A DNA stretch of 42,061 nucleotides from Chiloscyllium plagiosum (lineage: Eukaryota): positions 107,228,585 through 107,270,645 of the forward strand of contig NC_057717.1 of NCBI RefSeq assembly GCF_004010195.1. Reading direction: 5' to 3'. A program made the translations under genes and the position numbers. This document shows positions 2,000 through 41,156 of the stretch, one piece after another. Position 1 is the stretch's first letter. Every line of letters begins with the position of its first letter. A model generated the notes under the pieces. It had not been told where the DNA came from. It searched no databases and saw nothing but the letters and a program-made list of their open reading frames with translations.

Positions 2000-2133
2000 G
2001 AAAGGGTGATGCTGAAAAAGCATAGCAGGTCAGGCAGCATCCAAGGAGCAGGAGAATCGACGCTTCGGGCATAAACCCTTCATCAGGAAAGGGCTTAAGC
2101 TCACCTACAGCATCTGCGGTCCTCACTTTCTAC
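2000..2133 (-). mobile_element. Penelope-derived short element (family A) with degenerate hammerhead motif
   Basis: Minus strand reads CTGATGA-A-GGGT-TTAT-GCCC-GAAG-CG-TC (2059-2086; GAAA mutated to GAAG). ~15-bp TSD TCACTCTCT(G/A)TG(A/C)TT at 1985-1999 and 2134-2148. Confidence 0.75.
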
Positions 2134-2603
2134 TCACTCTCTATGCTTTTAAGAAATTGCATATGTTATGCCACTGGATATGCAAAGATTATGTGTCTTA
2201 GCAACATTACTGAAGCTGTGTGTTTGACTGAGTGTGGCACCAAGGAATCCTAGCAATATTGGAATCAATGGGAATTGGGGGAAACTTGGTTGGAATTGCT
2301 CCCAACATAAAGAATGATGGTTGTGGCTGCTCAAGGTCAACCATATCAGTCCCAGGGCATCACTACAGGAGTTCCTCAGGATAGTGTGCTTGGACCAACC
2401 ATCTTCAGTTGCTTCATCAATGACCTTATCTCCATCTTAACATCAGAAGTGGGGATGTTTGCTGATAATTACACAATGTTCAGCACCATTTGCCTCTCCT
2501 CGATAGTGTCGATATGCAGAAAGCCATGGGGAACATTTGGGCTTGGACTGACAAGTGGCAATTAACATTTGCACCACAGAAATACCAGGCAATGACATAT
2601 CTA

Positions 2604-2930
2604 GTGGGCGGCACGGTGGCACAGTGGTTAGCATTGCTGCCTCACAGCGCCAGAGACCCGGGTTCAATTCCCGCCTCAGGCGACTGACTGTGTGGAGTTT
2701 GCACGTTCTCCCCGTGTCTGCGTGGGTTTCCTCCGGGTGCTCCGGTTTCCTCCCACAGTCCAAAAGATGTGCAGGTCAGGTGAATTGGCCATGCTAAATT
2801 GCCCGTAGTGTTAGGTAAGGGATAAATGTAGGGGTATGGGTGGGTTACGCTTCGGCGGGTCGGTGTGGACTTGTTGGGCCGAAGGGCCTGTTTCCACACT
2901 GTAATGTAATCTAATGTAATCTAATCTAAA
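2604..2930 (+). mobile_element. HE1-type tRNA-derived SINE (young, CpG-rich subfamily)
   Basis: A-box TGGCACAGTGG, B-box GGTTCAATTCC, conserved core GTGGGTTTCCTCCGGGTGCTCCGG, CR1-like tail and (TCTAA)n end. Confidence 0.9.
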
Positions 2931-3063
2931 ATCTAATAAGATAGAATGCAAATATTAACTCTTAACATTCAATGGCATTACCATCACTAAACACCACTGT
3001 CAAATCTGGAGGTATCATTGACCAAAAACTAAACACATCCAGCCCTATAAATAATAAAGGCTA

Positions 3064-3195
3064 AATAACATGGATGCTGGAAATCTGTAACAAACTGAAG
3101 AAGAGTCAAATCATACTCGAAGCATTATCTCTGCTTTTTTCTCCACTGAGGCTGCTAGACCTACTGAATTTCTTCAGAAATCTCTGTACTTGCTT
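3064..3195 (+). mobile_element. Penelope-derived short element (family C) with degenerate hammerhead motif
   Basis: CTGAAGA(3095-3101)-A-GAGT...ACTC-GAAG. Host LINE sequence (...AAATAA..GGCTA) is duplicated on both sides. Confidence 0.55.
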
Positions 3196-3739
3196 CAACC
3201 ATGAAAATAAATTGGCTACAAGAGCAGGTCGGAGGTTGGAAACTCTGCGGTGAGTAACACACCTGCATTCTCGTCAGGAGTGATGGAATATTCTCCACTT
3301 GGCTAGATGAGTGCAGCTCCAACAACACTGGAAATGTTTAACATCATTCAGTATATCTGACAGCAAACTTGATTGCCACCTGATACACTGCCTCAACTTT
3401 CACTCCCTCTACCAGATACATGAGAATACCACACTTCCCCATCAAGTCACACATCATCCTGACTTGGAAATATATTACCCTTCCTTTATTATCAAAATCC
3501 TGTAACTCCTTCACTAAGGGCATTGGGGATATACGTACACCAAATGGACTGCAGCGATTCAAGAAGGCAGCTCATCAACAATTTCTCAAGGGCAATTAGA
3601 TATAAGCAATAAATTCTGGCCCTGCCAGTGACAACCACATTCCATTAACAATTTTTAAAAACGCCTCAGTGATGTCATTAAGCTTCATGCTTACCTGATT
3701 CAAACCAACAAATCATTATCAATACCACATAAGCCTCCA

Positions 3740-3886
3740 ACCTCTGTATCAAGGAATGTGTTTGCATGTGTGCTTACTTGAGAGAGAGAGAGAAAGAATG
3801 TGTGCATGTGTGTTTGTTTGTATGTGTGATGGAGTGTAAGCCTGTGAGAGATTGTGTGCATGGGTGTGTGGGTAGGGGGGTGTATG
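3740..3886. repeat. (TG)n/(AG)n-rich low-complexity tract, continuous with 4562-4680 before the LTR inserted
   Basis: TG/AG dinucleotide runs on both sides of the LTR, which is bounded by a TSD. Confidence 0.7.
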
Positions 3887-4561: not shown

Positions 4562-4935
4562 GTATGAGAGAGAGAGAGTGTGTGTATTAGAAAGTCTGCG
4601 TGAGTGTGTGAGCATATAAGAGTGTGTGAGTATGTGTGCTTGTGTGTGTATGCACGTGAGAGTGTATTGTGTAGTGGTGTCATCTATAGTGTGACATGAA
4701 CCCAAGGTCCTGGTTGAGGCCATCCTCATGGGTACTGAACTTGGCTCTGCTCAACCACTCTGCATTGTTGCATATCCCAAAGTCCGCCTTGGAGGATGGT
4801 CACCCGAAGATCCAAAGCCAAATGTCCCTGACCACTGAAGTGTTCATGTCACACTACAGGTGACCCCACTACACACAACACACACACACACACACACACA
4901 CTCTCTCTCTCTCTCTATCAAGCATGCATACACAC
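4562..4935 (-). mobile_element. Penelope-like element 3' end (GIY-YIG C-terminus) with short inverted duplication
   Basis: Minus translation EHFSGQGHLALDLRVTILQGGLWDMQQCRVVEQ...KFSTHEDGLNQDLGFMSHY. 4846-4935 is an inverted copy of the ATGTCACACTA(T/C)AG..(CA)n region. Confidence 0.75.
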
Positions 4936-4938
4936 AAA

Positions 4939-6040
4939 GGAATTGGGAATAAGGGATGGCATTTTTACAGGTGGTAGGGTGGGAGGAGGTGTAGTCTAGT
5001 TAGCTGTGGGAGTCGGTGGGCTTGTAGTAGATGTCTGTAGTTAGTCGGTCGCTAGAGACGATGATGGAGAGGTCCAGGAAGGGGAGGGTGGTGTCCAAGT
5101 TGGTCCAGGTGAATTTGAGGTCGAGGTGGAAGGTGTTTGTAAAGTTGATGAACTGTTCAACCTCCTCATGGGAGTACGAGACAGTGCCAAAAAATTAATC
5201 AATGTAGCGGAGGAACAGGTGAGGGGTGCTGCCCATGTTACTGCAGAAGATTGACCATTTCATGTATCCGACAAACAGGCAGGTGGGTGCCTATAGCTAC
5301 TCTTTTGATTTGGAGGAATTGGGAGGATTGGAAGGAGAAGCTGTTGAAGGTGAGGACCAATTCAGCCAGGTGGATGAGGGTGTTGGTGGAAAGGTACTGG
5401 TTGGGATGGCATGAGAAGAAGAAACGGAAGACTTGGGAGTCCTTCGTCGTGGCTGATCGATGTGTACAGGGACTGGATGTCCATGGTGAAGATGAGGCGT
5501 TGAGGGCCGGGAAAATGGAAATCTTAGATGTAGTGAAGTGAAGGGCATGGGTGGTGTCACGAACATAGGTGGGGAATTCTTGGAGTAAGGGGGACAGGAT
5601 AGTGTCGAGGTAGGAAGAGATGAGTGCGGGGGAACATGCGCAGGCTGAGACAATTGGTCAACCAAGGCAGTCAGGTTTGTGAATCTTCAGAAACAGGTAG
5701 AATCAGGTGGTGTGGGGTTCACAGACAATGACGTTTGAGGCTGTGGATGGGATATCCCCAGAGATGATGAGGTTTTGGATGGTCTGGGAGATGATGGTTT
5801 GGTGATGGGGGGTGAGGTCGCGATCAAGGGGTCAGTAGGAGGAGGTGTCTGCGAGTTGGCGCCTGACTTCAGCAGTGTAGAGGTCGGTGCGTCACACTGC
5901 TACTGCGCCCCCCCTCCCCCTTGTCTGCGGGTTTGATGGTGAGGTTGGAGTTGGAGCAGAGGGAGTGGAGGGCTGCGGGTTATGAGAGTGCGAGGTTGGA
6001 GTGAGTGAGAGGGGTGGAAGGGTGGACAGGTTGATGTCAT
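4939..6040 (-). mobile_element. Penelope-like reverse transcriptase remnant (disrupted)
   Basis: Minus-strand motifs FTMDIQSLYTSI, HLAELVLTFNSFSF, PHLFLRYID*, EEVEQFINFTNTFH, LPFLDLSI, DIYYKPTDSHS*LDYTSSHP, KNAIPYSQFL, with stops and frameshifts. Confidence 0.9.
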
Positions 6041-6667
6041 ATTTCCCTTATCAAGGAGTGTCCTTCTCTGCACTTACCCCAAACCGTCTCATTTCCTTAC
6101 ATTGCTTCACCTTCTACTGTTCTACAGAGTTTCTCACTAATGACTCTCATTAGTCACATCATTGCAATAAAAAAAAACTCTTCTTCCTTAACTGATAGTT
6201 AGTAAATGACAGCAGCTTCCTCCTCAGCCCTTCAGAGGAAAGGCTTTCCAAATAAACATAGCTTCTATGAACAGAAATATGACAGGGAAATAAGAAAACA
6301 GATGCCATTAACACCAGTGGGAACCGTATCACTGAGAATAAACAAACACCTGTTACGATTTAAATACACATTCTGGTTTCATGAATGTCTGCCTGTAAAT
6401 TTTGATCATTGAAAAGCTAATGACAAAAGTCATTACATTAAACAAGTAAAGATTTTAGATTGATTCTTTCAAAAGCAATGAATACAGACCCTTTCTGTGT
6501 CATGTGTGTACATGTTCCAGAAAGCAGTGCTTTTGTGCAAAGTACTTTTGTTATATATCCACCCTCTCTAACTTTGCAAAGCCATAATCTGCCTACCCAA
6601 TAACTCTACACTCCTAGATGCCTGAGCTCTATTTTAAGCTCGTTGTTTGTCATATTTTGTACACTAG

Positions 6668-6712
6668 GAGAAAGTGAGGACTGCAGATGCTGGGGATCAG
6701 AGCTTAAAAGTG
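6668..6712. mobile_element. Isolated family A terminal 'tail' fragment
   Basis: GAGAAAGTGAGGACTGCAGATGCTGGGGATCAGAGC is near-identical to 40953-40987. Confidence 0.65.
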
Positions 6713-7816
6713 CAGCTCTGTATTTTGCACCCTGAGCTGCTTGTATTAAAATAAAGTTTGATGCACTGGTAGGCCTGGACATGTGCCAATAATTCAGCTG
6801 AATTATGAGAATTCAACACATATATAGTGCAGTCTCCCTGTATTGGTTTTGGAACTATAACAGTCCAAACAAACTGAAACCGTGAACTCTGTACTGTGGG
6901 AGATGCAATGATCAGGCTGGCTAGCATATGGTCATAGAGGAACTGTTTGTCGTTCAGTCACAAACTCAAAAACACATCTTGCCAGGTTTGCTTGTACAAT
7001 TATAATATTGCACATGTTTAGCTGTGAAATGGATCAATCCCATTTGTACACTGTCTATTTTTAAAATATATCAATGGAAAATTGGACTTTGCCCATCTGT
7101 TTTTCAAATGGAATCACTGACCAGGCACTCTGTCAAAGTTATCCAGTTTATATCCTGATATGTAGTGACAGGAACTTTTCCTGGTGCAGGTACTGCTGGT
7201 AATTATTTCATCAGTGATGTGAGTGACATGGAACATAGAGAACATCGACAAATGTCCAAATCCAGTGGGTTATGGGTGGAAAAATAGAAAAGAAAGGCGG
7301 CAGAAAAAAGAGATAGGGAAAAGCAGACAGGCGAAAGAGCAGAATATGGAGCCACTTTACCATTTATGCAGCCATGTGATATAAACCGAATGTTGATTTG
7401 TGCCACAAGGTAAACTCACACCTGAAAATCTCAACCCAAATTTATTTGGTCTGGGAACTGTTATAGACCAGGCCAGACCCCCTCGAAATATTTCAAGAAA
7501 GTAGCCCAGACTCGAACTATGCTAGTTGTTTTAAATAGGTGTAACGTGGATATTCCAGGAGGGATGCTGTTGGTCAAACCACATAGTTTTAAACAAAACA
7601 GAATTTATTTATAAGATTACTAAATGAAACAAATGAAAGAGAATACTGAATAACTTAACCTATCTGAAAATCCAACAGATCATCTCAACTTAATGATGCT
7701 GTTCCAAATACTTGCACACAGGGTCTTACAGGACAGATGTTAGAAAAAGAGTACCAGCATGGACCTGCTTCTTTGGGTCCAGCAGCTTCAAACCTCTGCT
7801 GTGCTCAAACCAACTA

Positions 7817-8370
7817 AGAGTAAGTGATGACTGCAGATACTGGTGATCAGAGTTGAAAGTGTGATGCTGGAAAAGCACAGCAGGTCAGGCAACATGCAAG
7901 CAGCAGAAGAATGTGGGCGGCACGGTGGCACAGTGGTTAGCACTGCTGCCTCGCAGCGCCAGAGACCCGGGTTCAATTCCCGCCTCCGGCGACTGACTGT
8001 GTGGAGTTTGCTCATTCTCCCCGTGTCTGCGTGGGTTTCCTCCGGGTGCTCCGGTTTCCTCCCACAGTCCAAAGATGTGCGGGTCAGGTGAATTGGCCAT
8101 GTTAAATTGTCCGTAGTGTTCGGTAAGGGGTAAATGTAGGCGTATGGGTGGGTTGCGCTTCGGCGGGTTGGTGTGAACTTGTTGGGCCGAAGGGCCTGTT
8201 TCCACACTGTAAAGTAATCTAATCTAATCTAATCTAAATCAACTTTTCGAGCATAAGCTCTTCATTGGAATCCATTCCTGACGAAGAGCTTATGCTGGAA
8301 ACTTTGATTCTCCTGCTCCTTGGTTGCTGCCTAACCTGCTGTGCTTTTCCAGCACCACACTCTCGACTCT
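7817..8370. mobile_element. Family A fold-back element with two degenerate hammerhead motifs, split by a SINE
   Basis: Tail plus left arm 7817-7912 and 8238-8270; right arm CTGACGA-A-GAGC-TTAT-GCTG-GAAA from 8278. Duplication GTGCT(C/A)AAACCAA on both flanks. Confidence 0.75.
7913..8237 (+). mobile_element. HE1-type SINE (young subfamily)
   Basis: Near-identical to 2604-2930, with (TCTAA)n tail. Confidence 0.9.
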
Positions 8371-9209
8371 GTGCTAAAACCAAACCAGAGAAAAAACTGA
8401 GCTGGGAGAATCAGGCCACTGCCTTTTCATTGTACATGTGTTTTGTTTAAATTTAAATGCCTTTTGTCTGAGGCAGTATCTGTTAGCTGTAATCAAATTG
8501 GCCCTAAAACCCTTCAACTTAGACTTTTTGGAGTCTGTGTCTTTTACAAACTGTATGAAAAAAAAATCCAAAGACAGCACAATCTTGTTAAAGGGGCAGC
8601 ATTGTCACAGAACAACAAAGTGCTGCTGGAGGTAACAGTAACCAGGATGATCTCTCTGTTGACTATGAATTTGGTAGTTGCTGGGAGAACACAATGACCT
8701 GAATTACCTGACAGATTTATCTGATTGAATTCACTGCAAAACAATCTGGGGGGAAAGAAATTGTTCAATATTCAAGACAAGTTAAATAAATGTGACCTTT
8801 AAACAAGGGAACGCAATAAGGGTACATATGCTATACATCAGTCGCTTTCAACATCAACTATGATAATCAGACCATAGTAATGGTGTAGAAACCATTGGTA
8901 CAATGGGCACTTTCATGCTTCATCAATAGAAGATCATTCTGCAGTTTCTATGCTTGTTGCTGAGAACAATTACAGCATAGTTCCAAGTATTACAGAGTTA
9001 AGTGATAATATCTAACCTCAACCTCTTTGAAATACTCAGTTTCGATCATCGTATGCAACATGGTATGTCAACGAGATTAGGACATGGAGTTGGACAAACA
9101 AGAGGAACATTAGTTTGATTCCTGGCCCCTGCTTCTTATTGGAAAAATAAGACTGAATTCCTTCAATTGATCGTTTTCACATAACCTCTTTGGGCATTTA
9201 TGCGTAAGT

Positions 9210-9655: not shown

Positions 9656-9839
9656 TCAGCTATGACTCTGGAATTAAGCCCCAGTGCATCACATGTTTTA
9701 AAGAAAGTTTAAATGTCATTCTTTTTCACCAAGTTATTCAAATTGTTTCTCTTTGTGCTTTCCAGATCAAAAGAAACTTTCACCAGTTTTGTCAGTAAAC
9801 TCTAACTCATTTTTTAGAAACAAAGTAATGCTTGAAACA

Positions 9840-10005
9840 AAATCTTGAAAGAACTGCAGATGCCAGGAATCAGAAACAAAAATAGAAATTATGGAAAAAG
9901 CTCAGCAGATGTGGCAGCATCTGTGGAGAGAAATCAGAGTTAATGTTTCGGGTCCAGTGACCCTTCTAGAAAGGATCACTGGACCCAAAACATTAACTTT
10001 AATTT
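9840..10005. mobile_element. Family C fold-back element, hammerhead core lost at the inversion junction
   Basis: GTTAATGTTTCGGGTCCAGTGACCCTTCT and AGGATCACTGGACCCAAAACATTAAC form an inverted pair. 12-bp TSD ATGCTT(G/T)AAACA at 9828-9839 and 10006-10017. Confidence 0.75.
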
Positions 10006-10510
10006 ATGCTTTAAACACATGGCTACACCAGTTATCAACTAAGCTACTATGCACGAATAAATTATATCCCCTTAATTCCAAACATATGCGCATTCATACA
10101 TGGACAGGTTGAGAAAACTCACCTCTGCGAAGTATAATGGATACAGAAATATAGGCAAAGAGAAGAAAAACATAAAGAAACACCTGAACAGGTCAAGGGT
10201 TCAGATGTAGAAGATAGAATGTGTTTATTCTCAAAATTCCTTTGATAAACTGTCAAGAAGATCTGCTTGTTGTTGGTCACAGAGTAGTGTAAGATCCTCA
10301 GTTGAGGTGGAGGATCAGTTAGACCTAGGTCCTGGATTGAGCTAATATTTTGTTATTAAGAGTCTATGAGGAGATCTAAGACATTGATTTCTGGAACTTT
10401 CTCAAGTATCCAGAAAATATTTCACTAAGATATTTCTTCAGCTTGTTTTCTTTAAAGATTATTTTTACTCACTGATGTTCCTTCTGCCAAAAATGTGTTG
10501 CCTTACAATT

Positions 10511-11605
10511 ATAGAGTCAGAGAGATGTACAGCATGGAAACAGACCCTTCGATCCAACTCATCCATGCTGATCAGATATCCCAACCCAATCTAGTCCCAA
10601 CTGCCAGCACCTGGCCCATATCCCTCCAAATCCTTCCTATTCATATACCCATCCAGATGCCTTTTAAATGTTGCAGTAGTACTAGCCTCCACTACTTCCT
10701 CTGGCAGCTCATTCCATATACGTACCACCCTCTGACTGAAAAAGTTGCCCCTTAGGTCTCTTTTATTTCTTTCCCCTCTCACCCTAAACCAATACCCTCT
10801 AGCTCTAGACTCCCCAACCCCAGGGAAAAGACTTTGTATATTTATCCTATCTGCGCCCCTCATGATTTTATAAAGATCATGATTATATAACCTCTATAAG
10901 GTCATCCCTCAGCCTCCGATGCACCAGGGAAAATAGCCCTAGCCTATTCAACCTCTCCCAATAGCTCAAATCCTCCAACCCTGGCAACATCCTTGTACAT
11001 CTTTTCTGAACTCTTTCAAGTTTCACAACATCTTTCCAATAGGAAGGAGACCAGAATTGCACGCAAAATTCCAACAGTGGCTTGACCAATGTCCTGTACA
11101 GCCACAACATGACCTCCCAACTCCTGTACTCAATACTCTGACCAATAAAGGAAAGCATACCAAATGCTTTCTTCACTATCCTATCTACCTGCGACTCCAC
11201 TTCCAAGGAGTTATGAACCTGCACTGCAAAGTCTCTTTGTTCAACAACACTCCCTAGGACCTTACCATTAAGTGTATAAGTCCTACTAAGATTTGCTTTC
11301 CCAAAATGCAGCACCTCATATTTATCTAAATTAAACTCCATCTGCCACTTCTCAGCCTATTGGCCGATTTGATCAAGATCCTGTTGTAATCTGAGATAAC
11401 CTTCTTCACTGTCCACTACACCTCCAATTTTGGTGTCATCAGCAAACTTACTAACTATACCTCTTATGCTCACATCCAAATCATTTATATAAATGATGAA
11501 AAGTAGTGGACCCAGCACTGATCCTTGTGGCAATCCATTGGTCATAGGCCTCCAATCTGTAAAACAACCCTCCACCACCACCGTCTGTTTTCTACCTTTG
11601 AGCCA
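10511..11605 (-). mobile_element. 5'-truncated CR1 (HER1-like) LINE, RT C-terminal half + 3' UTR
   Basis: GLPQGSVLGPLLFIIYINDLD...SKFADDTK; LYRTLVKPLLEFCVQFWSP; FFSQRVVRIWNELPEEVV. Confidence 0.95.
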
Positions 11606-11639
11606 GTTCTGTATCCAAATGGCATCTCCGCACTGAACT

Positions 11640-13780
11640 TCATTTGCCCCCATCTGTCCAATCCACTAACTTATCTATCTCTTACTGCAGTTTTCTATTG
11701 TCCTCCTTACAATTTACAATGCTTCTGGGTGTTGCATTATCCAAAAAATCTGAATTTTTTCCCTGCACACTAAGATCTAGATCACATATATGTATCAGGA
11801 AAAGCAAGGGCCTCAAATTCAAACCCTGAGGAACTCTACTAATAACTGTACTCCAGTGCAAATAATCGCATTAACCATTACTCTTTGTTTCCTATTCTTC
11901 AGGCAATTGTCATTCAGCCAAGTATCCATATACCCTTTTCATGAGTCTATTGTCTATGTTCAATACGTTTGGAAGTTCATGTTCATATCAACAGTCTTTC
12001 CATCATCAACTGTCTCTGTTACCTTTTCAAAAAACTTCAGCAAAATAAGTTAAACATCACTTTTTTGTAAGAGATCGGTAGATGCTCATCTTAATTAATC
12101 CACATTTTAACAAGTAACTATTAATTCCATCCTGAATAATTGTTTCTAGATGTTGCTCCCCCACTGAAGTTAAACTGACTGGTCCGTAATTGTTGGTCTT
12201 GTCCTTACAATGTTTTTGAACAATGTGATAATGTCAGCAATTCTTCAGTTTGATGACACCAGCTGGGTCTACATGAAGAGTAAGAAAGATTGAAAGACTG
12301 TATCTACTGCCTCTGCAATTTTTATTCTCACTTTCTTCAACATCCTTGAATGCATTTTATCTGGTCCCAGTGCCTTATTAATTTTAAATACTTACATTCT
12401 ATCCAATATCACTTCTTTGCCAATTTTAAATCCTTGTAATGATTGAGTTCCCTTTGGTTTCACCATGGCCAAAGGTAGCATCAAATTTCTTGGTATAAAT
12501 TCTGTGTCTTACAATCTTATACTCCACAACCACCTGATGAAGGAGTAGCGCTTTGAAAGCTAGGGCTTCCAATTAAACCTGTTGGACTATAACCTGGGGC
12601 TGTGTGATTCTTAACTTGGTAAAAACAATTGCAAAGTATTCATTTAATACATTAGCAATACTCCCTGTCCATGTGTAAACCTCTCCTTGGTCTCTATTTG
12701 ACCCTAATCCTTCTTTTATCACCTTTTGTACTGTTTATGTACTTTTGTATTCCCTTTTATGTCAGCTGCTAGTCTTTTTTTCATTTCCCCTTTTTGCTGC
12801 TCTTATTTATTTTTTAACCTCTCTTATGAACCTTTTAATTCAGCTGGTTTTCAACTGTATTTTCTATCTGGCAGCAATTATAAGCACACTTCTTTCTTAA
12901 CCATTACTTTATTTTTCAGCCTTGGAGCCCTCAATTTGTTTGTCCTTCCTTTCCCTTTTAAGAGACTATACCTCTGTCTGGCCTGAAGTATCTAATTTTT
13001 GAAGGTAGCCCATTGTTCAACAACAGTTCTCTCCATCAACCTTTGGTTCCAGACTACTGCCCCATCTCTATTCTTGCTCCACTGATGTTAACTCTTTGCC
13101 AGTTAATTGTTCTTACTCTGGTTTTCCCTATGTCCTTTCCACTGTCATCCCAAATCTTATGATGCTATGATCACTGTCCCCTAAAAGTTTCCCCACTGAG
13201 GCTGCTCCAATTGGCTCATTCCCAAGAAGAGGTCAAGCAGTATCTCTTTTTTCATTGGTCTGGACACAACTATTGGAGAATATTCTCCTGAACACAATCT
13301 AGTATTGCTTGCCCTTCACAGCTCTTTACACTACCCCATCCCAGTCTATACGCATGTAATTAAAGCTCCCAGTTATAAGTATAATATTACTTAAATACTC
13401 TAATGCTTACATCTCGTGGAGTTCTCTTACATCCTTCCCACTAGTCAATGGACTGTAGACTAGACTGAGAAATACCCTCTTTTAATTCCTTAGTTCTAAT
13501 CAAATCAACTCAATCCTTGAACCCACTGGGACATCCTCCTTCTGAAGAATACATTGAACTCCTTAACAGTACTGCCACCCCTCTTTCTTTTCTTTCCTTC
13601 CTTACTTGCTGAACACCATGTAATATTTAACACCTAGTTCTGTCTTTCCTTGAGCCACATCTATTACAGATGTAACATCAAAATCCCATGCAGTAATCTT
13701 TATCTGTAACATAGCAATTTTAATGTCTGTACTTTATGCACCCATTCACACGTAGTGTAACCCTGATTGAAACATTTCTT
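11640..13780 (-). mobile_element. Older, heavily decayed CR1 LINE (EN to RT)
   Basis: Minus-strand SVGKLLGDSDHSIIRF near 13150-13200 and NYGPVSLTSVG near 12160-12195. Confidence 0.7.
12496..12614 (+). mobile_element. Family B Penelope-derived element with hammerhead motif
   Basis: CAC-CTGATGA(12534-12540)-A-GGAG-TAGCG-CTTT-GAAA-GC-TA-GGG. Flanked by CTTGGTA at 12489-12495 and 12615-12621. Confidence 0.8.
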
Positions 13781-15729: not shown

Positions 15730-16250
15730 ATTTGCATTTATATAGCACCTCATCATGTTTCTCAGGATCATGGCTTCACATACAGAGTTAGTTTGGGGTA
15801 TGGCAATTTTGTTTATTCACACAATGACAACAGCCGATTTCCACAAAGCATCATTCTTCAGTCATCATGAGATATTTAACTCTACTGGAGTAAGTTAAAA
15901 TCACACAACACCAGGTTATGGTCCAACAGGTTTATTTGGAAGCACTGTGCTCTGAAAGCTAGTTCTTCCAAATAAACCTGTTGGATTATAACCTGGTGTT
16001 GTGTGATTTTTAACTTTGTTCACCCCAGTCCAACACCGGCTCCTCCACATTTATTGGTGTAGGAAGAACTCTCTGTCCTTCAAATAATGTCATGGGAACT
16101 TTAATATCATTTTGAACAGGCACCTGGAATAACACCTAATCCAAAAGGTGCTAGATTGGACAGTTAAAAAATTTAACCAAAGTTAGGGTACTCCAGCAAA
16201 ATGTGCCTCTCAATCAGAAACGTAGAAACTTTTAGACTTTAGTGAGTTGA
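15730..16250 (-). mobile_element. Decayed Deu-domain-like SINE, split by a family B element
   Basis: L2-like tail TTGCATTTATATAGCAC and a Deu-like segment CTTCAAATAATGTCATGGGAACTTT. Identified by recognition only. Confidence 0.45.
15893..16050. mobile_element. Family B fold-back element, hammerhead 5' core deleted, one-sided tail
   Basis: Inverted arms of ~55 bp around CTGTGCTCTGAAAGCTAG, followed by the tail TTTGTTCACCCCAGTCCAACACCGGCTCCTCCACAT. Confidence 0.8.
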
Positions 16251-18010: not shown

Positions 18011-18170
18011 GGCTGATTGACTAAAACCAAGACCCTGGACTCATTTCAGAGGCTTTCCTAGGCTTACTGCGCTGGGACTCCCTGTTAGAAGGCAATCCCC
18101 CTTATCTTGACTGAGACTTTCTGACAACCATGACAGGATCGTTCCTCTGTGTCTGCATTAATCAGCGAGG

Positions 18171-18367
18171 TTTGGAGGAGCCGGTGTTGGACTGTGCTGT
18201 ACAAAGTTAAAAATCACACAACACCAGTATATAGTCCAACAGGTTTATTTGGAAGCCTTATCTTGTGGAGCGCTGCTCCACAACCACCTCATGAAGGAGC
18301 AGCACTCCGAAAGCTAGTGCTTCCAAATAAATCTGTTAGACTATAACTTGGTGTTCTGATTTTTAAC
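18171..18367. mobile_element. Family B fold-back element; hammerhead core has G5->C
   Basis: Left tail plus inverted arms; CAC-CTCATGA(18288-18294)-A-GGAG-CAGCA-CTCC-GAAA-GC-TA-GTG. 12-bp TSD TAAT(C/T)AGC(G/A)AGG at 18159-18170 and 18368-18379. Confidence 0.85.
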
Positions 18368-19139
18368 TAATTAGCAAGGCAAGACAACATATGATAGTGA
18401 TACTATGAGCAGCCAGATTGGCTCAGAGTGAGTTTGCACTATGACAGCAACCAAACAAACTGGAGGCGGAGCCTAGTCTAGTCCATTGTTTGGGTGTGTG
18501 TCCCTAAGCACACAGTTTCTTGCAGCTGCATTACAATGGTAGTTGCCAGTACAACCTAAGGCCTAAGGTGCAGCATAATATTCTTAACGGTTGGCACATG
18601 TCCTTAGATGTGGGGTGTGAGTGGTCGGTTCCATGGAGAGCGCCCTGAGATGTTGTCCAACGCGAAGGTGCTTCGGAGCAAGTGGTAAGCTGAAGAGGCC
18701 AAATTGCTCTGTCTTCCATGTCAGATTTTCCTGATGTTGATCTTGTTTGGCGAATTTGGTAGGAAAGAAAGCTGAATGTTAATGAGGCAAATTGAGCCGT
18801 CAACAGGGAATTAAATAATTTGAAATCATCAATTGGCAATTCTCACCGCTGTCTTGTGAAAAGCATACAAGATGGAGCAAGCTGTCTCAGTGTTGAGATG
18901 GGCCTCACTGGACATCTCATTGGATTCTGCCAGAAATCTCACTATAGCGTGTGTTGGTCAGACCCCTGTCAGATTCAACTCATGGTATCCACCATTCAAA
19001 GATAAGAAGTGCAATAAATATTCTTTGTTAATATACCATAAAGGGCCTAGTTAAGTCCACAAATGCAGGAACTTGTTGATAATTATTTGGTTAAAAATCA
19101 CATAACACCAGGTCATAGTCCAACAGGTTTATTTGGAAG

Positions 19140-19174
19140 CACTAGCTTTCGGAGTGTTGCTCCTTCATCAGGTG
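19140..19174 (-). ncRNA. Minimal type I hammerhead ribozyme motif (intact core)
   Basis: Minus strand: CAC-CTGATGA-A-GGAG-CAACA-CTCC-GAAA-GC-TA-GTG. Confidence 0.75.
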
Positions 19175-19604
19175 GCTGTGGAGTATAAGATCATAAGACA
19201 CAGAATTTATAGCAAAAGTTTACAGTGTGATGTAACTGAAATTATGTATTGAAAAAGACCTGGATTGTTTGTTAAGTCTCACATCTTTTAGAATGAACAT
19301 GTTGGTTTCAGTTCTTTCATATGTAAATCACAGAACCTATTTTTAAAGTTACATTCTCAAGTGAACTCACACCTTCAATGCATTATCTGGGCCAACATGG
19401 CACCTATTGTGAAAGTTCATTTGAGAATGTAACTTTAAAAACGTTCTACAATTTACTTATGAAAGAACTGAAACCAACATGTTCATTCTAAAAGATGAGA
19501 GACTTAACAAACAATCCAGGTCTTTTTCAATACATAATTTCAGTTACATCACACTGTAAACTTTTGCTATAAATTCTGTGTCTTATGATCTTATACTCCA
19601 CAGC

Positions 19605-19639
19605 CACCTGATGAAGGAGCAACACTCCGAAAGCTAGTG
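19605..19639 (+). ncRNA. Minimal type I hammerhead ribozyme motif (intact core)
   Basis: Stem I CAC/GTG, core CTGATGA (19608-19614), stem II GGAG/CTCC, GAAA (19629-19632), palindromic AGCT stem III. Predicted cleavage after CUA at 19636. Confidence 0.75.
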
Positions 19640-20529
19640 CTTCCAAATAAACCTGTTGGACTACGACCTGGTGTTGTGTGATTTTTAACTTTGTCCACCC
19701 CAGTCCAACACTGTCACTTCCACATCATAGTCAATATGGAAATCTGCGGATGTCAGGAAGTTCCTGGAATCTCTTTTGGATCACTATGAAGCTGTGACCC
19801 CAGTTTAAATTCTACCCACTTTACTCCAGCAAGCGGGTTTTCTATTAAAGTCTTCCAACCATCTCATTAAAACTCAAGACTTCGCTTCCTTTAGCTTTGA
19901 TCATTTTTCCACATCTTCCAGAAGCCATGAGCCTCACTGAGATTCAGTTCCACAGATAGCAAACATTAAAATTATTGGCAATTCTTCGTGGGTGAGCCAG
20001 TACAGTTGAATATCAATTAACTGTCTAACCACAGATGACGTAACTGACCAGCCATGCCATAGACCCACGTGCACTCAAGCAAAAGGATGGGGTGAGTGTG
20101 TAGCTGCCAGTTAAGGTTTATCTTCCTGATCTAAGAGGATGCTCAGTTAATTTAGTATGGACCAGGCTATATTTAGCACCTCTGTGGTCCATATGGCTCA
20201 GCTGCTGACTGTCCTCAGCCACTGATCTATGAAACAACATAAATCAGCCTGTGGCTGGTGTGAGGCACTGTGGGTAACTCTGCCTTCAGCACAGCTTGTC
20301 CTGGTCACACCTAATTTACATAAAAATCCAATTAAAATGCCGCATTGAAAATTTAAAGAGCACGAGCATCAATTTAAATATATGATTTTCGTTTTAAATG
20401 CATTCATGAGAAGTAAACTTTGGTAAACACAACCATAAAATGAAAACATCTTAAATCTCTGAACATTCTGTTAACTTATTTTCTAAACACGGTGAACACT
20501 GAAATTTGATTAATATCTCAGTTAATGAT

Positions 20530-26500: not shown

Positions 26501-27187
26501 AGCGTGCTAAGAAAATATCTACCGATAATGTCCAATATTGTTGGCAGCGGATATCTAACATTCTGGGAGCTAAGCTCCTGGAGACTGGACAAAACCATGG
26601 TTTTTGCACCTTCAATGAAAATGACTGAGTTCAGCAAGGGAAGGGGGGAAGGGGCTGTGGCATGGGTAGAAAAGCAGGTAAGGGCAGGAGTGGAGGTAAT
26701 TCCTCCACCTGCTCCACTTTCCAATATCATCTTTAGGAGTGCTGTGGACTCGTGGATAGCAGAAACATCAACTGCCATAACGAATATAGGGCCTGCCAGA
26801 TCAAAGGGAGGAGCAGAACACTTCATTTACACCAATAAATTTTTCAGCTTGCAGAACCACCATCCCACCAAGAAAACAGTAAAGAGCTTTCAGTCCCAAC
26901 AGTCCGTAGATACCCCAGAAATACTGCTGTGGTACTTGTCCCCAATAACTCCACCCCAAGGGTTACTGCAGGGTCACAGTAAGTTGGGGTAACTTCTGCC
27001 TCACCACTCTTGCGAGAATTCCTTTCTACATTTGAAACATGGAAGAAATATGCTTTGACAAAAAAGCTGTGGTTTTAAAACATTTTATTTCACTTTGTCT
27101 ATGTTCCCTAAAGCAGTTGCTTGAATTATTAATATTTTGAAAATATTTTCATCATCATTTTCATCCATTCTTCAATCAACATCAGAA

Positions 27188-27637
27188 AGTTTCGTCTGCA
27201 TATCCACCAATGTCATTTACTGTATCCGTTGCTCCTGATGCGGTCTCCTATACATTGGGGAGACTGGACACCTCCTCGCAGAGCACTTTAGGGAACATCT
27301 CCAGGACACCCGCACCAATCAACCCAATCTCCCCGTCCCACTCTGCTGAGGACATGCAGATCCTGGGCCTCCTCTGCCGCCACTCCCTCATCGCCCGACG
27401 CCTGGAGGAAGAATGCCTCATCTTTCTCCTCGGAACACTTCAACCCCATGACATCAATGTGGACTTCACCAGTTTCCTCATTTCCCCTCCCCCACCTTAC
27501 CTCAGGTCCAACCTTCCAGCTCCGCACCATCCTCATCATTCCTGATGAAGGGCTTTTGCCCAAAACGTTGATTTTCCTGCTCCTTGGATGCTGCCTAACC
27601 TGCAGTGCTTTTCCAGCACCATTCTAATCTTGACTCT
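27188..27637 (+). mobile_element. 5'-truncated Penelope-like element: GIY-YIG endonuclease remnant + family A hammerhead-bearing end
   Basis: NVIYCIRCS*CGLLYIGETG...EHFREHL from 27209; RRLEEECLIFLLGTLQPHDINVDF; CTGATGA-A-GGGC-TTTT-GCCC-AAAA-CG-TT at 27542. Perfect 14-bp TSD AATCAACATCAGAA at 27174-27187 and 27638-27651. Confidence 0.92.
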
Positions 27638-27689
27638 AATCAACATCAGAATCCAAGCCCTTCTTCTTTGGTACCCTTGGCCCATCAAA

Positions 27690-27852
27690 GTCAGAAGTTG
27701 CACAACATGAGATTATAGTTCAACAGGTTCATTTGAAATCACAAGTTTTTGGAGCACTGCTCCTTCATCAATTCACCTGACGAAGGGGCTGCGCTCTGAA
27801 AGCTTGTGACTTCAAATAAACCTGTTCATCGATAAACTGGTGTCGTGTGACT
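27690..27852. mobile_element. Family B-variant fold-back element
   Basis: Diverged inverted arms of ~75 bp meeting near 27771. Confidence 0.8.
27773..27809 (+). ncRNA. Minimal type I hammerhead ribozyme motif (intact core)
   Basis: TCAC-CTGACGA-A-GGGG-CTGCG-CTCT-GAAA-GC-TT-GTGA: 4-bp stem I and a stem II with G-U pairs. Confidence 0.7.
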
Positions 27853-28544
27853 AGTGAATTATCCACCACAGTCCCCATATCTTGACCCATCAACACACTT
27901 AACCTAACTTCTTGTTCCTTTCTTTGTAATCCTATCCCTACTGCTTTTATTCTCACCACTGTCATACTGCTCGTCCATTGGGGAATTATAGTGCCTCTTC
28001 TGTTGCCCTACATTCTCTTAATATTAATTAAAGGAAAGGGGCAGACAGAAACATAAGCTAGTAACTGCATAAAGGATTCACTAAAACATGTTCCAGCACA
28101 ACTTCAACTCTCATTAATGAGTGACAAGTTAAAAAGCACAAACTGCATTATCTATTAGTTGATTCCTGTTACACCATGGTTTGGTTCCTGTGTGCAGGTT
28201 TAGGAAACCGCATTCTTGGTTTGAAATGCGGAAACAACATTTGGCAACAACAGAAAGTCTTAGAAAGAACAGCAGCTTCAAGAAAATCAGCACATTCCTC
28301 TCCCTTTGAACTTTAACAGGTCTGAAAAAAATGTTCAGTTATATTTGAGATCTACTCAGCTGCCAGCCTTTGCAACAAAAATTGATTAAGCTGTGATAAT
28401 TAGCAGTAATTAATTAATGCTTATTCAGCTAATTTACTTGGATTCCATACAAATTCCATGTTACTCCACTAAATTACACCTAATCATCCCTGTTTGAGTT
28501 TAAAAGAACCCCAAACTGCAAAGCTCCGTGGCTCACAAACTAAT

Positions 28545-29962: not shown

Positions 29963-30455
29963 AATTCAATCACAATTCAAAATATTATAACATCACACAA
30001 CACTCATAACAGAAACAGCCTACTGTCTGACAGCTGGGTTCAAATTCAGACCAAACTCATTGGATGAGAATCTCTATAAACTCAGTTCAGATAGCCTTAG
30101 TGAACAGTTGACTGTAAACAAAAGATCTTTAATGAGGAAAAAGCTATCCTTCAGGATTGTCCTGAAATCTCTGGGAAGTCAAGAACATCAAGAGATAGGA
30201 GGAGGTGATGACCATTCAAAACAATTATGTTGGATCTCAGTCTTAGATAAATGTGAGGTGCTGTATTTTGGAAAGGCAAATCATGGGCAGGATTTATACA
30301 ATTAATGGTAAAGTCCTGGGGAGTGTTGCTGAACAAAGTGACCTTGGAGTTCAGGTTCATAGTTCCTTGAAAGTGGAATCGCAGGTTGATAGGATAGTGA
30401 AGAAGGCGTTTGGTATGCTTTCCCCTCTTTGTCAGTGCATTGAGTATAGAAGTTT

Positions 30456-32535: not shown

Positions 32536-32542
32536 TGCTTAG

Positions 32543-32592: not shown

Positions 32593-32961
32593 TCACTTCA
32601 ACACTTTTGTTTAGTTGCTATTGCAGGTAGGGAGAAAGGCTGTTTGAGTGATTAGGAATTCTGTACTATCAGGTGCTGAAACCCCTAGTTTTATGTTGAA
32701 TTAGAGATGTCAAACCGATCCTTAACCTCACTCAGACAGGCTGTTATGTGGTTACAAAACTGAATAAAAAATGTAGAAACACAGTTCAAATCCACCATAG
32801 CAGTTGAAAAATTTTTAAATCCAGAATTAAAAAGCAACTATCAAAGTAAAGGCTTGGAGTCTTGCCAAACTATGTTGATTCTGGATCCTTTAAAATGGTG
32901 CTTCCAGGATACCCACCCCAATTTCTGGATTTCTGATTTTCAGGAATGCCTTTTAAAGCCC

Positions 32962-33051
32962 TTTTGAAGAAGGGCTTATGCCCGAAACGTCGATTCTCCT
33001 GTTCCCTGGATGCTGCCTGACCTGCTGCGCTTTTCCAGCAACACATTTTCA
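32962..33051 (+). mobile_element. Family A single-arm insertion starting at the hammerhead core
   Basis: TTGAAGA-A-GGGC-TTAT-GCCC-GAAA-CG-TC with C3 absent. 10-bp TSD CCTTTTAAAG at 32949-32958 and 33052-33061. Confidence 0.85.
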
Positions 33052-33323
33052 CCTTTTAAAGTCGGCAGGTTGGTGTTGGTCATGAGCCCACAGCTGGCAC
33101 TCCTGACCTGGTTGTCTCTAGTGCAATGACAGGTATATCCTAGTCCTTCACAATTTTCACAATCTGATCAAAGTTTCAATGGTTCATGGCTCAGGAGTCT
33201 TGTGAATCATGGGACCCCATTTATATTCCTGGGTTCAGTGCACAGAAGCAGAAGAAGGTTTGACTCCATGAACTACCCACCTTTAAACATAGTCAACTGC
33301 ACTTCCAATTTATGCTTCAGAGT

Positions 33324-36110: not shown

Positions 36111-36241
36111 AAGACATATTTTGACACTTTTTGACAGATCTTGACATGGTGATATTTGTCCACATATCTAGACAAAGCTTGACAGACCTTGACACATATT
36201 GCTATCCTTGACACTTCTTGACAGGTTTATACTTGTTGACA
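36111..36241 (+). repeat. Array of TTGACA motifs with 10-bp periodicity
   Basis: Exact TTGACA at 36121, 36131, 36141, 36179, 36189, 36208, 36218 and 36236. Confidence 0.8.
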
Positions 36242-38784: not shown

Positions 38785-38887
38785 GAACGAAACAGAAAGT
38801 GCTGAAGAAACTTGATGTCTGGCAGCCTCTGTGGAGATAGAAACAGAGTTAATGTTTTGAGTCTAATATGACTTGTTTTTCAGAGCT
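38785..38887 (-). mobile_element. Family C fragment, hammerhead motif decayed
   Basis: GGCAGCCTCTGTGGAGATAGAAACAGAGTTAATGTTTTGAGTC matches 9910-9955. Confidence 0.6.
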
Positions 38888-39446
38888 TTGCTGCTTTTTG
38901 TTCAAACGGTAGTGATCCAGCCCTCAAAATGGACTGAGTGCTCTGTCGGGACTGCCATGGATGCTACCAGCTGTCCAGCCACAGTCTGTGTTGATGAAGG
39001 GAGGTGGCATTAAATCTACATCAATAAGTGGTGATGTTGTTATACATCAGGGAAGCTGCAAAAACTGCCGTGGCCGCTTGTATTGACTTATAATTATGTT
39101 AAATGGTTTAAAATTTTCAGTACAAGATGTTATGCAAGAGAACTAAGCCCTATCCTTACCTTTTACACCATACAATAAATGGTCTTGCTAATTATTACCT
39201 GAGGCAGCTAATACATCATCATTCACTACTTTAACTTGCATATTAAGTGGAACTACTTCATGATCAGACAATGTTTTATCACATGGACTATGCTCCTGAC
39301 TGGAAATTCTTACGGAACACATCTGCTTAAAGAAAGACTTGCATGAGCAGAACATGTGGACTCAGGGCACAAGTAACACAATAGTAAGTTGGATACAAAT
39401 GGATAGTCAAGGTGAAAGGTAGTTGCTCAGATGAGCATAAAATGGG

Positions 39447-39820
39447 AATTTGTGAAACTTGAAAGAGTTCAGAAAAGATTTGGAAGGATGTTTCCAGTAT
39501 TGGAGGGTATGAACTACAGGGAGAGGCTGAACAGGATGGGGCTATTTTGTCTGCAGTGTCAGAGGCTGAGGAGTGACCTTGTAGAAGTTTATAAAATCAT
39601 GAGGGGCATAGAGAGGATAAATAGACAAGGTCTATTCCCTGGGGTAGGGAGTCCAAAACTAGAGAACATAGGTTTAAGGTGAGAGGGCAAAGATTTAAAA
39701 AAGACCTAAAGGGCAACATTTTCACGCAGAGGGTGGTACATTTCTGAATGATCTGCCAGGTGGTTGGCATGGATGAGTTGGACCGAAGGGTCTATTTCCA
39801 TGGTTGTACATCTCTATAAT
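39447..39820 (+). mobile_element. CR1 (HER1-like) 3' end
   Basis: VKLERVQKRFGRMFP...QRLRSDLVEVYKIMRG; ends TACATCTCTATAA. Confidence 0.9.
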
Positions 39821-40954
39821 TAATGTTGAACAAGTACTGGTGCTGGGACCAATTTCTTTACCAATTACATATATAAATGTAGATTTGGGAATTAAAAGTC
39901 CAGTATGAGTCGGAGGAGGTAGGGGAGGTCCTTAATGAATACTTTGCTTCGGTAATCACTACTGAGAGGGACCTTGTTGTTTGTGAGGACAGCATGAAAC
40001 AGGCTGATATGCTCAAACAGGTTGATGTTAAGAAGGAGAATGTACAGGAAACTTTGAAGAACAAGGATAGATAAGTCCCCTGGGCCAGGCTGGATATACC
40101 CAAGGTCACTACAGCAAGTGAGGGAAGAGATTGCTGCACCTTTGGCGATGATCTTTGTGTCCTCACTGTCCACTGGATTAATGCCACATGATTGGAGCAC
40201 AGCAAATGTTATTCCCTTGTTCAAGAAAGGGAATAGGGAATTACAGACCAGTCAATCTTATGTTTATGGTGGGCAAATTAATGGAGAGGGTTCTGAAAGA
40301 GAGGATTTATGATTATTTGGAAAACCATTGTTTGATTAGAGATAGTCAGCATGGCTTTGTGAGGGGGAGGTCATGCCTCACACCTTTATTGAATTCTTTG
40401 AGTATGTGACAAAACATGTTGATGAAGGGAGAGCAGTGGATGTGGTGTATATGGATTTTAACAAGGCATTTGAGAAGGTTCCCTATGGTAGGCTCAATCA
40501 GAAAGTAAGGAGGCATGAAATACAGATAATTGGCTGGCCCATAGAAAACAGAGGGTGGTAGTAGATGGAAAGTATTCAGTCAGGAGCTTGGTGACCAGTG
40601 GTGTTCTGCAGGGATTTGTTCTTGGACCTCTGCTCTTTGTGATTTTTACAAATGACATGGATGATGAACTGGAAGGATGGGTTAGAAAGTTTTCTGATGA
40701 CACTAAGCTTAATGGAGTGGTGGATAGTGTGGAGGGCTGTTGTAGGTTGCAACGAGACATTGACAGGATGCAGAGCAGGGCAGAGTAGTGGCAGATGGAG
40801 TTCTACCTGGATAAGTGTAAAGTGATTCATTTTGGTAGGTCGAAATTGAATGCAGATTACATGGTTAAAGGCAGGATTCTTGGTAGCGTGGAGGAACAGA
40901 GGGATCTTGGGCTCCACGTCCATAGATCCTCAAAATTGATACCCAAGTTGATAG

Positions 40955-41156
40955 AAAGTGAGGTCTGCAGATGCTGGAGATCAGAGCTGAAAATGTGTTG
41001 CTGGAGAAGCGCAGCAGGTCAGGCAGCATCCAGGAACAGGAGAATCGACGTTTCGGGCATAAGCCCTTCTGAAGAAGGGCTTATGCCCGAAACGTCGATT
41101 CTCCTGTTCCCTGGATGCTGCCTGACCTGCTGCGCTTCTCCAGCAACACATTTTCA
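40955..41156. mobile_element. Young family A fold-back element inserted in CR1 ORF2
   Basis: Tail 40955-40987. Arms 40988-41070 and 41073-41156 differ by one indel. 14-bp TSD ACCCA(A/G)GTTGATAG at 40941-40954 and 41157-41170. Confidence 0.95.
41067..41100 (+). ncRNA. Minimal type I hammerhead ribozyme motif (intact core, weak stem I)
   Basis: CTGAAGA(41069-41075)-A-GGGC-TTAT-GCCC-GAAA-CG-TC with palindromic ACGT stem III. GUC site ends at 41096. Confidence 0.7.

Follow-up and report, generated by a model that had tools for sequence, protein, structure and literature searches.

Fourteen loci in a 42,061-base stretch of repeat-rich vertebrate DNA from Chiloscyllium plagiosum (contig NC_057717.1; the whole stretch is hereafter called the window) are best read, with a probability of roughly 0.8, as dead-on-arrival, 5'-truncated insertions of Penelope-like elements (PLEs) that belong to two lineages, rather than as independent mini-elements. 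Nearly all of these copies are reduced to the 3' terminal module of the element, that is, a minimal type I hammerhead motif and the 55-95 nt that follow it. An earlier note on this DNA had described 13 of the loci as insertions of 90-640 bp forming three families, whose labels A, B and C we keep here, of PLE-derived elements with a minimal type I hammerhead grammar. Self-BLAST with one arm per family and nhmmer profiles show directly that 13/13 of these loci are genuine members of three repeat families, and the copies do range from 92 bp (A4) to ~640 bp (B4). An additional family C copy, C0, brings the census to 14 loci (table 1), and the nhmmer profiles found no further copy in the window; these profiles were built from the known copies, which makes them circular for known members and no test of their membership.

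The link to PLEs is directly visible in family A: the hammerhead motif of copy A3 is preceded by ~105 codons, which are the C-terminal end of an open reading frame (ORF; 27185-27500) for a GIY-YIG endonuclease, and by a short spacer. This ORF end consists of two collinear pieces with one in-frame stop and one frameshift, and an ordinary Pfam scan of the 139 ORFs of at least 66 aa (E <= 0.01) left the PLE pieces without a match; when its stop is replaced by an X, the first A3 piece matches Pfam GIY-YIG at E 5e-4 and 20.7 bits, below the cut-off of 22.6. Its nearest protein is a 359-aa bamboo shark record (78% identity), which itself has 85 longer relatives (E <= 1e-10), 65 of them with PF00078 and 18 with PF01541 according to precomputed annotation. 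One such relative, P0011 (806 aa), scores 29.4 bits for RVT_1 (cut-off 29.6) and 25 bits for GIY-YIG (cut-off 22.6), and the A3 pieces align with its residues 699-746 (27/48 identical, E 1e-18) and 758-800 (21/43, E 2e-9). Canonical PLEs of the EN+ (endonuclease-positive) type are defined by a single ORF in which a reverse transcriptase (RT) precedes a GIY-YIG endonuclease at the C-terminus (Craig, Yushenova, Rodriguez and Arkhipova 2021, PMC8557442). Because the ORF end of A3 belongs to RT plus GIY-YIG proteins, family A is the 3' end of a PLE. The window also holds an internal remnant of a PLE RT ORF of 1.1 kb (4937-6075, minus strand), truncated at both ends, which matches residues 176-537 of the 654 of a shark protein record, P0004, at 62-75% identity (tblastn, E 7e-110). 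On its 3' side, this remnant borders an (AC)n/(CT)n microsatellite (~4566-4916). In A3, the endonuclease frame stays open past the usual C-terminus and closes at the two UGA triplets of the CUGAUGA box (27540-27548), which may be chance in a decayed copy.

The three families, which the earlier note held to differ in sequence, reduce to two lineages, A/C and B, because the 3' modules of A and C are homologous and that of B compares with both at chance. Over the 60 nt after the cleavage site, A and C are identical at 39/60 positions, a score reached by 0/500 shuffles, and A-C cross-matches also appear in self-BLAST and nhmmer; for B against A and against C, the score is reached by 183/500 and 252/500 shuffles. 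What B has in common with A and C is the same core boxes, the same extra A and the same G10.1-C11.1 pair. On this basis, the earlier note was right to derive A and C, with their hammerheads, from Penelope elements, as shown for A by its ORF end and for C by its homology to A, and B is likely Penelope-derived too, as judged from its hallmarks, namely the motif grammar, the tail, the inverted arms and the target site duplications (TSDs).

The hammerhead motif itself is far too frequent to be expected from composition: CTGANGA-N14-GAAA matches the window four times against 0.15 expected, and CTGANGA/GAAA with a gap of 4-30 nt matches it 16 times against 4.29 expected, counts that 0/100 shuffles reach in either case. 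In each of the three families, the copies that have decayed least show an extra unpaired A after A9 and a stem II closed by a G-C pair (G10.1-C11.1). According to the alignments and the grammar scan, A15.1 and U16.1 are separated by CG in family A and by GC in family B; the extra A and these two letters are as the earlier note had given them. Stem II differs in sequence by family, yet remains paired; of the sequences given for it in the earlier note, GGGC/GCCC in A and GGAG/CUCC in B stand, and GGGUC/GACCC in C is found in C2 only, with GAGU/ACUC in C1 instead. The stretch 15.2-16.2 is palindromic in both A (ACGU) and B (AGCU). Helix I is only ~3 bp long and a monomeric helix III is absent. 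When two A3 segments are cofolded, they are predicted to pair with each other over the palindrome in a helix of 6 bp, and each retains its stem II (-24.3 versus 2 x -9.3 kcal/mol); in the predicted B4 dimer, the palindrome is paired and G12-A14 are also sequestered, and the A5 monomer would favour a competing hairpin.

How many of these motifs could be ribozymes is another matter. The grammar was scored on 20 arms, several of whose fuzzy matches were mis-registered and were taken instead from alignments by eye. The core boxes are error-free in 5/20 arms (A5 right, B1, B4 left, B4 right and B5 right), and a Watson-Crick G10.1-C11.1 pair is retained as well in 3/20 (A5 right, B4 left and B4 right). 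Four correctly registered arms (A1, A4, B3 right and C1) have one core change, the others are decayed or truncated, no family C copy has a fully intact motif, and the 2/20 arms without any grammar match are the two arms of C2. The description of these elements as ribozyme-bearing can therefore be kept for three to five of the 20 arms, and it fails for the others, which are decayed or start inside the motif.

Neither is the core better preserved than its surroundings within the families. Mismatches to the family majority fall on core versus other positions in 8/90 versus 52/522 cases in family A (p 0.85) and in 10/106 versus 96/800 cases in family B (p 0.52). Since core positions change as often as others within families, the inserted copies decay neutrally. 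Between the lineages A/C and B, the core is identical and the flanks are unalignable; this identity, together with a stem II that has changed yet stayed paired, fits a constraint on the source elements and not on the insertions.

With regard to their architecture, eight of the 14 loci (A1, A2, A5, B2, B3, B4, B5 and C2) are made of head-to-head inverted arms with both 3' ends outward, and a tail, ~32-40 nt long, is confined to one arm in 8/8 of them (A1 and B5 by eye). The two arms of A5 extend 60 and 92 nt past the predicted cleavage site, which gives a tail of 32 nt. The inverted arms and the one-sided tail are thus as the earlier note had described them; the TSDs it reported hold at seven loci (A1-A5, B5 and C2), where they score at least 10 (10-15 bp, 0-2 mismatches), are weak at two (B3 and C0, score 8), and are not detectable at the five others (B1, B2, B4, C1 and C3). 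Among 300 random position pairs used as a control, a score of at least 10 occurred in 1/300 and a score of at least 8 in 16/300. Arm-to-arm identity spans 81/81 (A5) to 75% (B5), so insertions of many ages are present. All paired motifs in the window lie on opposite strands, and no family forms a direct tandem array, as 0/9 rows of the Tandem Repeats Finder output fall within a family locus. Relative to nucleotide C3 of the hammerhead (not to be confused with the locus of the same name, called locus C3 in what follows), the 5' ends of the aligned arms lie at -3, -4, -5, +1, +5 and 0 in family A and at -50, +28, +17, +8, -12, +1 and -3 in family B, with the arms of B4 at about -220; the mini-arm of A1, which does not align to the hammerhead region, was left out of this count. 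Just beyond the right end of B4, a stretch of ~30 nt (19745-19775) resembles, by eye, an A/C-type tail on the minus strand and may represent the tail, and nothing else, of another PLE copy.

Table 1. Repeat copies in the window, with arm and motif details (nucleotides in hammerhead numbering, arm ends relative to nucleotide C3) and target site duplications; a point in the strand column marks head-to-head pairs so recorded.
Locus	Position	Strand	Structure	Motif and arm details	TSD
C0	541..652	-	decayed solo family C copy (nhmmer E 4.4e-31, blastn 78%, alignment)	hammerhead boxes not recognisable	
A1	1998..2133	-	family A arm 1998-2089 (minus) head-to-head with mini-arm ~2090-2133 (plus)	main arm: single core change, A15.1 to G, 5' end at -3; mini-arm: stem II start joined directly to tail (by eye)	1985-1999 / 2134-2148, 15 bp, 2 mismatches
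C1	3095..3198	+	solo family C copy (BLAST, alignment, nhmmer, grammar scan)	CUGAAGA box intact; A15.1 to G	
A2	7814..8368	.	head-to-head family A pair, arms 86% identical; left arm (minus, tail-bearing) 7817-7912 + 8237-8269, interrupted by a ~325-bp SINE-like (short interspersed element-like) insertion, 7913-8236; right arm (plus) 8275-8368	5' ends at -4 and -5	7799-7813 / 8369-8383, 15 bp, 1 mismatch
C2	9840..10005	.	head-to-head family C pair, arms 89.5% identical over 38; long left arm (minus) with tail; short right arm ~9966-10005, stopping 17 nt past predicted cleavage site	both arms begin at ~G8/A9, hence without CUGANGA box	~9828-9839 / 10006-10017
B1	12483..12620	+	solo family B copy; tail not detected	extends 50 nt upstream of C3; boxes intact; stem II weakened to G-U pairs	
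B2	15884..16056	.	head-to-head family B pair, arms 94.5% identical; tail on right arm	no complete hammerhead; left arm begins at H17/nt 1.1, the predicted cleavage site (15946-15950; +28); right arm begins in loop II (+17)	
B3	18171..18367	.	head-to-head family B pair, arms 87.5% identical; left arm (minus) tail-bearing	left arm begins at G10.1; right arm reaches -12, G5 to C	18159-18170 / 18368-18379, 12 bp, 2 mismatches (weak)
B4	19090..19730	.	long young family B palindrome; arms ~300 nt each, meeting near 19385, 96.1% identity over 281; inverted repeat 253 nt at 96%; tail on right arm only	intact grammar on both arms, C3-H17 19143-19171 (minus) and 19608-19636 (plus); 220 nt upstream of motif non-coding	
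A3	27188..27637	+	5'-truncated PLE copy with ORF end, spacer, hammerhead motif and 3' module, which ends in first 8 nt of tail	C3 27542, H17 27569; G12 to A	27174-27187 / 27638-27651, 14/14 exact
B5	27689..27880	.	old head-to-head family B pair, 52 bp after A3; arms 75% identical; degenerate tail on right arm	right arm: boxes intact	27676-27688 / 27881-27893, 13 bp, 1 mismatch
A4	32959..33051	+	92-bp solo family A copy, preceded by 6-nt stub of inverted arm; 98% identical to A5	C3 to U	32949-32958 / 33052-33061, 10/10
C3	38778..38879	-	decayed solo family C copy	G8 to A, G12 to A	
A5	40955..41156	.	young head-to-head family A pair, arms 81/81 identical, 1 gap letter; 32-nt tail on left arm	right arm: sole fully intact family A motif, C3-H17 41069-41096	40941-40954 / 41157-41170, 14 bp, 1 mismatch

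Each of the structural peculiarities that the earlier note had listed has been described for PLEs elsewhere, and the novelty implied by the earlier note does not survive the comparison. Minimal hammerheads (min-HHRs) were defined in the pseudo-long terminal repeats (pseudo-LTRs) of all PLEs (Cervera and de la Pena 2014, PMC4209133), with an extra nucleotide between A9 and G10.1 and a palindromic stretch 15.2-16.2. The same study found the motifs to be mostly solo and "probably related to truncated PLEs", with opposite-strand pairs 100-700 bp apart, and the one-sided tail and adjacent inverted copy are likewise in print (PMC8557442). The motifs of the window are like these min-HHRs in their core boxes, in the one unpaired base between A9 and G10.1, in the G10.1-C11.1 pair and the short helix I, in the lack of a monomeric helix III combined with a palindrome (here ACGU in A and AGCU in B), and in the occurrence of several consensus families per genome, mostly solo or as opposite-strand pairs. 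They differ in that stem II is 4-5 bp long here when 6-8 bp are stressed there, in that family C has no palindrome, and in their host, since the vertebrate hosts given there are bony fishes, coelacanth, Xenopus and reptiles, with no cartilaginous fish in the main text (PMC4209133). As for activity, in vitro cleavage of PLE min-HHRs is reported to be low and confined to dimers (PMC4209133), and cleavage by PLE hammerhead dimers was studied by Lunse, Weinberg and Breaker (2016/17, as summarised in PMC6765202).

The general anatomy of PLE insertions (Craig et al. 2021, PMC8557442) is also recognisable here, with strong 5' truncation, an adjacent inverted 5'-truncated copy, a tail of 30-40 bp that is often present at one end only, and TSDs. 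In contrast to that architecture, no partial tandem (pseudo-LTR) is found in the window, each copy being either a solo arm or a head-to-head pair; however, the lack of pseudo-LTR tandems is expected if all copies are below unit length, and is thus no argument against a PLE origin. The closest biochemical parallel is PAc, the Poseidon PLE of Anolis carolinensis (Frangieh 2024, PMC11167929), whose protein cuts and extends both DNA strands in vitro and starts reverse transcription at two internal sites of the RNA, the spacing between which is the tail, ~85-92 nt past the cut. In PAc as here, the hammerhead lies at a fixed distance upstream of the RT starts, an optional tail of 30-40 nt corresponds to the stretch between the two start sites, and the end with tail lies at a comparable distance from the cut (92 nt here versus ~85-92 nt); cutting and extension of two strands also fits the head-to-head arms. 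The PAc hammerhead is reported to cut only with the protein, its cleavage to be dispensable for insertion in vitro, and no RNA-seq reads to end at the cut site (PMC11167929). Unlike in PAc, where the ORF begins at stem II, no long ORF opens in the A or B module, where short frames close within the module or the tail (by eye), and in A3 it is the preceding ORF whose frame continues into the core box, at UGAUGA. Furthermore, the biochemistry is known for PAc, when the shark lineages are known here from sequence alone. A third comparison is with the non-LTR (non-long terminal repeat) retrozymes of animals (Cervera and de la Pena 2020, PMC7229834; Li, Clavereau and Pollet 2026), which have in common with the copies described here type I hammerheads of PLE ancestry and non-coding units of ~100-400 nt. 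These retrozymes, derived from PLE termini and reported in one Chondrichthyes genome (Li et al. 2026 preprint), are direct tandem repeats that release a monomer between two ribozymes, when the window has inverted arms; because no direct tandem occurs in it, the definition of a retrozyme does not apply to these copies.

From these parallels, the following scenario may be proposed for the origin of the 14 loci. An RT/GIY-YIG protein would cut its target with a stagger that leaves a TSD of 10-15 bp, and reverse transcription would begin inside the RNA, either ~60 or ~92 nt past the hammerhead cleavage site, the choice between the two start sites producing an end without or with the ~32-nt tail. 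Synthesis of complementary DNA (cDNA) would usually halt at most a few bases away from the hammerhead's 5' edge, and a second arm in the opposite orientation would often be added. This arm could be primed from the other strand once nicked, or the cDNA could snap back where short inverted matches adjoin the core; the outcome would be a head-to-head pair bearing a tail on one arm only. As judged by eye, the junctions of A1, A4/A5 and B3 are each compatible with cDNA having folded back at an inverted match of 3-4 nt next to the core, namely UUC before C3 against G8-A9-A in family A and CUCC at -16 against the GGAG of stem II in family B. The hammerhead would belong to the pseudo-LTR of the source element, where it is thought to act as a protein-assisted dimer on multi-unit transcripts; in the inserted copies, it would be a neutrally decaying passenger.

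Evidence from outside the window comes from contigs of public sequencing runs aligned to 27100-27900 at 80% likeness. Four runs were compared over this interval; X1 and X10 represent two shark species, the identification of X15 as RNA is a guess, and X22, a raw single-cell RNA run, had 0 reads aligned and so bears on neither expression nor cleavage ends. The summed word depth of a run is not a copy number and only the shape of its profile is used: in X1, it lies at 3-12 in the unique flanks, at 0.6-1.3 million in the bins of the ORF end (27208-27315), at 1.2-2.4 million in bins 27451-27504, falls to a trough of 0.15 million over a variable spacer (27505-27531) and reaches 4.8-5.3 million in the 3' module, and X10 has a profile of the same shape (8.4-9.0 million). 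This directly observed abundance, with its 2-8 fold rise in depth toward the 3' end, fits 5' truncation and not a separate, hugely amplified mini-family. Among the loose ends listed for these contigs, the tail is the consensus at 27641 in 408, 386 and 53 contigs of three runs, with an agreement of 0.57-0.73. An X10 contig also spans B5 with its flank (27701-27900), which places the insertion at the same locus in the second species; the B5 insertion consequently predates the split of the two species.

Several observations nevertheless weigh against a reading of all 14 loci as simple PLE truncations. Copies of families B and C adjoin no coding remnant, the only matches of 86 PLE-type proteins to the window by tblastn being 4901-6096 and 27173-27479. 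Family C has a non-palindromic ACAU in all four copies that keep the stretch 15.2-16.2, and in the fold predicted for the A5 palindrome, stem II is paired with what remains of the other arm, its stub, and no hammerhead forms. Rfam returns no hammerhead, either at gathering score or at E <= 10, in the window or in targets of 76 and 81 nt. Moreover, 10/13 aligned arm 5' ends lie within -5 to +8 of C3 (10/15 placed arms when the two B4 arms, at ~-220, are included), and such clustering is not what simple random truncation predicts. The best-supported loose ends among those listed also lie at -6 to -4 of C3 in both species (591, 509 and 634 contigs in X1; 570, 441 and 572 in X10). Finally, A4 and A5 have nearly the same inversion junction, although their TSDs differ and mark them as separate insertions.

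These points give their substance to the reading of the short units as non-autonomous elements (mini-PLEs, "solo pLTR" cassettes or hairpins) that would be recopied in trans by the PLE RT/GIY-YIG protein, with their inverted structure and 5' boundary inherited. Besides the clustered arm ends and the shared junction of two copies that are 98% identical, this alternative can draw on the low agreement (0.30-0.40) upstream of the top loose ends listed in the two species, on the 2-4 fold step in depth at the hammerhead, on the absence of a coding link for family B in the window, and on the argument that PLE termini can found non-autonomous families (Li et al. 2026 preprint). We nonetheless consider it unlikely. 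Each of A1, A2 and A5 has its own junction position, as does each of B2, B3, B4 and B5; and the junction common to A4 and A5 would be equally expected if snap-back occurred each time, as the sequence beside the core suggests, since fold-back could bring it about anew at separate insertions, no inheritance being needed. The core decays no differently from its flanks, ORF-bearing sequence is just 2-8 fold less deep than the module, no tandem arrays are found in the window, and a solo copy ending at the RT start would lack the ~55 nt of RNA beyond that site that insertion requires in the Anolis PLE (PMC11167929), if this need extends from that other lineage. The loose ends at -6 to -4 might be taken to prove that the element has a fixed end, a reading that can be upheld only in part because the consensus at 27536 resembles the C-rich spacer upstream of the A3 motif; part of these contigs probably come from long copies whose spacer is different and shorter. 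Between the two origins that the earlier note had set side by side, truncation products and self-propagating units, the differing junctions, the equal decay of core and flanks, the absence of tandems and the rise in depth toward the 3' end thus favour the truncation products.

The clustering of arm ends could also have a more specific meaning, although we think it unlikely: the module of ~85-125 nt may be, instead of a random truncation product, a discrete retrotransposition cassette whose 5' boundary is set by the ribozyme region, either as the start of the template or through snap-back. If it were, this cassette would have attained, in both shark species, word depths of 10^5-10^6 times the single-copy level, and arms beginning at nt 1.1 (the left arm of B2 and, on one reading of its orientation, the joint 27537/27570) would be fossils of self-cleavage in vivo in a vertebrate. 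The strand-switch joint from 27537 to 27570 (nt 1.1), the orientation of which the contig table does not state, is the best supported among the joints listed, with 4 and 6 contigs in the two species. Starts at nt 1.1 could be footprints of cleaved templates, and are too few for such a claim to be made.

Two further alternatives are far less probable. One is that the likeness to a hammerhead is incidental, the repeats being of SINE, MITE (miniature inverted-repeat transposable element) or hairpin type without relation to PLEs, and the grammar a product of chance in a GC-rich hairpin. The silence of the Rfam hammerhead models at the thresholds tried, the ~3-bp helix I and the lack of a monomeric helix III would suit it, as would the fact that the 20 Rfam matches to the window at E <= 10 include 0 of hammerhead families, the only weak matches being to microRNA (miRNA) hairpin models, far below gathering scores and due to the long hairpins only. 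Against it, the A3 motif directly follows the end of a PLE GIY-YIG ORF; two lineages that cannot be aligned downstream have all core boxes, the extra base and G10.1-C11.1 in common; stem II varies but stays paired, up to a both-sides change from GGGC/GCCC to GAGC/GCUC in the left arm of A2; the grammar is that of the published PLE min-HHRs, and standard descriptors are reported to miss motifs that lack helix III (PMC4209133); and motif counts far exceed those of shuffles. The other alternative, by which the copies would be functional RNAs recruited by the host (ribozymes or hairpins from which small RNAs are made) and kept under selection, could point to the weak resemblance of the long A5 and B4 hairpins to miRNA-type precursors in Rfam, to B5 at the same locus in a second species and to the module depth of X15, but it is just as improbable given the neutral decay with core equal to flanks, the arm identities of 100% to 75% that suit insertions of different ages, the motifs, most of them broken, and the fact that a shared old insertion is expected under neutrality.

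As regards X15, the 3' module of family A (27532-27639) is 35-50x as deep as the ORF end in this run, versus 4-8x in a DNA run. If X15 is RNA, the module is over-represented in transcripts; as the kind of run is a guess, its depth was not used as evidence of transcription.

Overall, the phenomenon seen here is already described, and the copies of the window are additional members of it in a cartilaginous-fish genome. PLEs have been listed among whale-shark repeats (PMC8455134), and we found no shark-specific account of PLE hammerheads in the literature searched, a search that left paper supplements, Repbase and Dfam outside. The window therefore offers a worked example of the anatomy of PLE insertions in a cartilaginous fish, which is useful for repeat annotation in that head-to-head stubs of this kind are easily taken for MITEs, SINEs or miRNA hairpins and that Rfam does not flag their hammerheads. 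It also adds two lineages of huge abundance in two species, in which B5 at least is older than their split. If the clustering of 5' ends and junctions at the hammerhead edge were true genome-wide, it would bear on how PLE cDNA synthesis terminates and on how inverted arms are formed.

The rest of the window is populated by other repeats. RVT_1 was detected by Pfam in four ORFs, all of them belonging to other remnants, of the LINE (long interspersed element) type, with RVT_1-positive fragments at 2311-2562 (plus), 11360-11665 (minus) and 40182-40785 (plus); A5 lies within the last of these remnants, and RVT_1 ORFs adjoin it. Two SINE-like repeats of ~325 bp (2605-2930 and 7913-8236) are 96% identical and each has a short TAATC-type tandem at its end. 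The second is younger than A2, as it sits inside the left arm of that copy. The head of both is presumably tRNA-like, judging by its look; ARAGORN called no tRNA in either. Lastly, an assembly gap of 922 N lies at 28687-29608, which accounts for the low G+C content of the bin 28001-30000.

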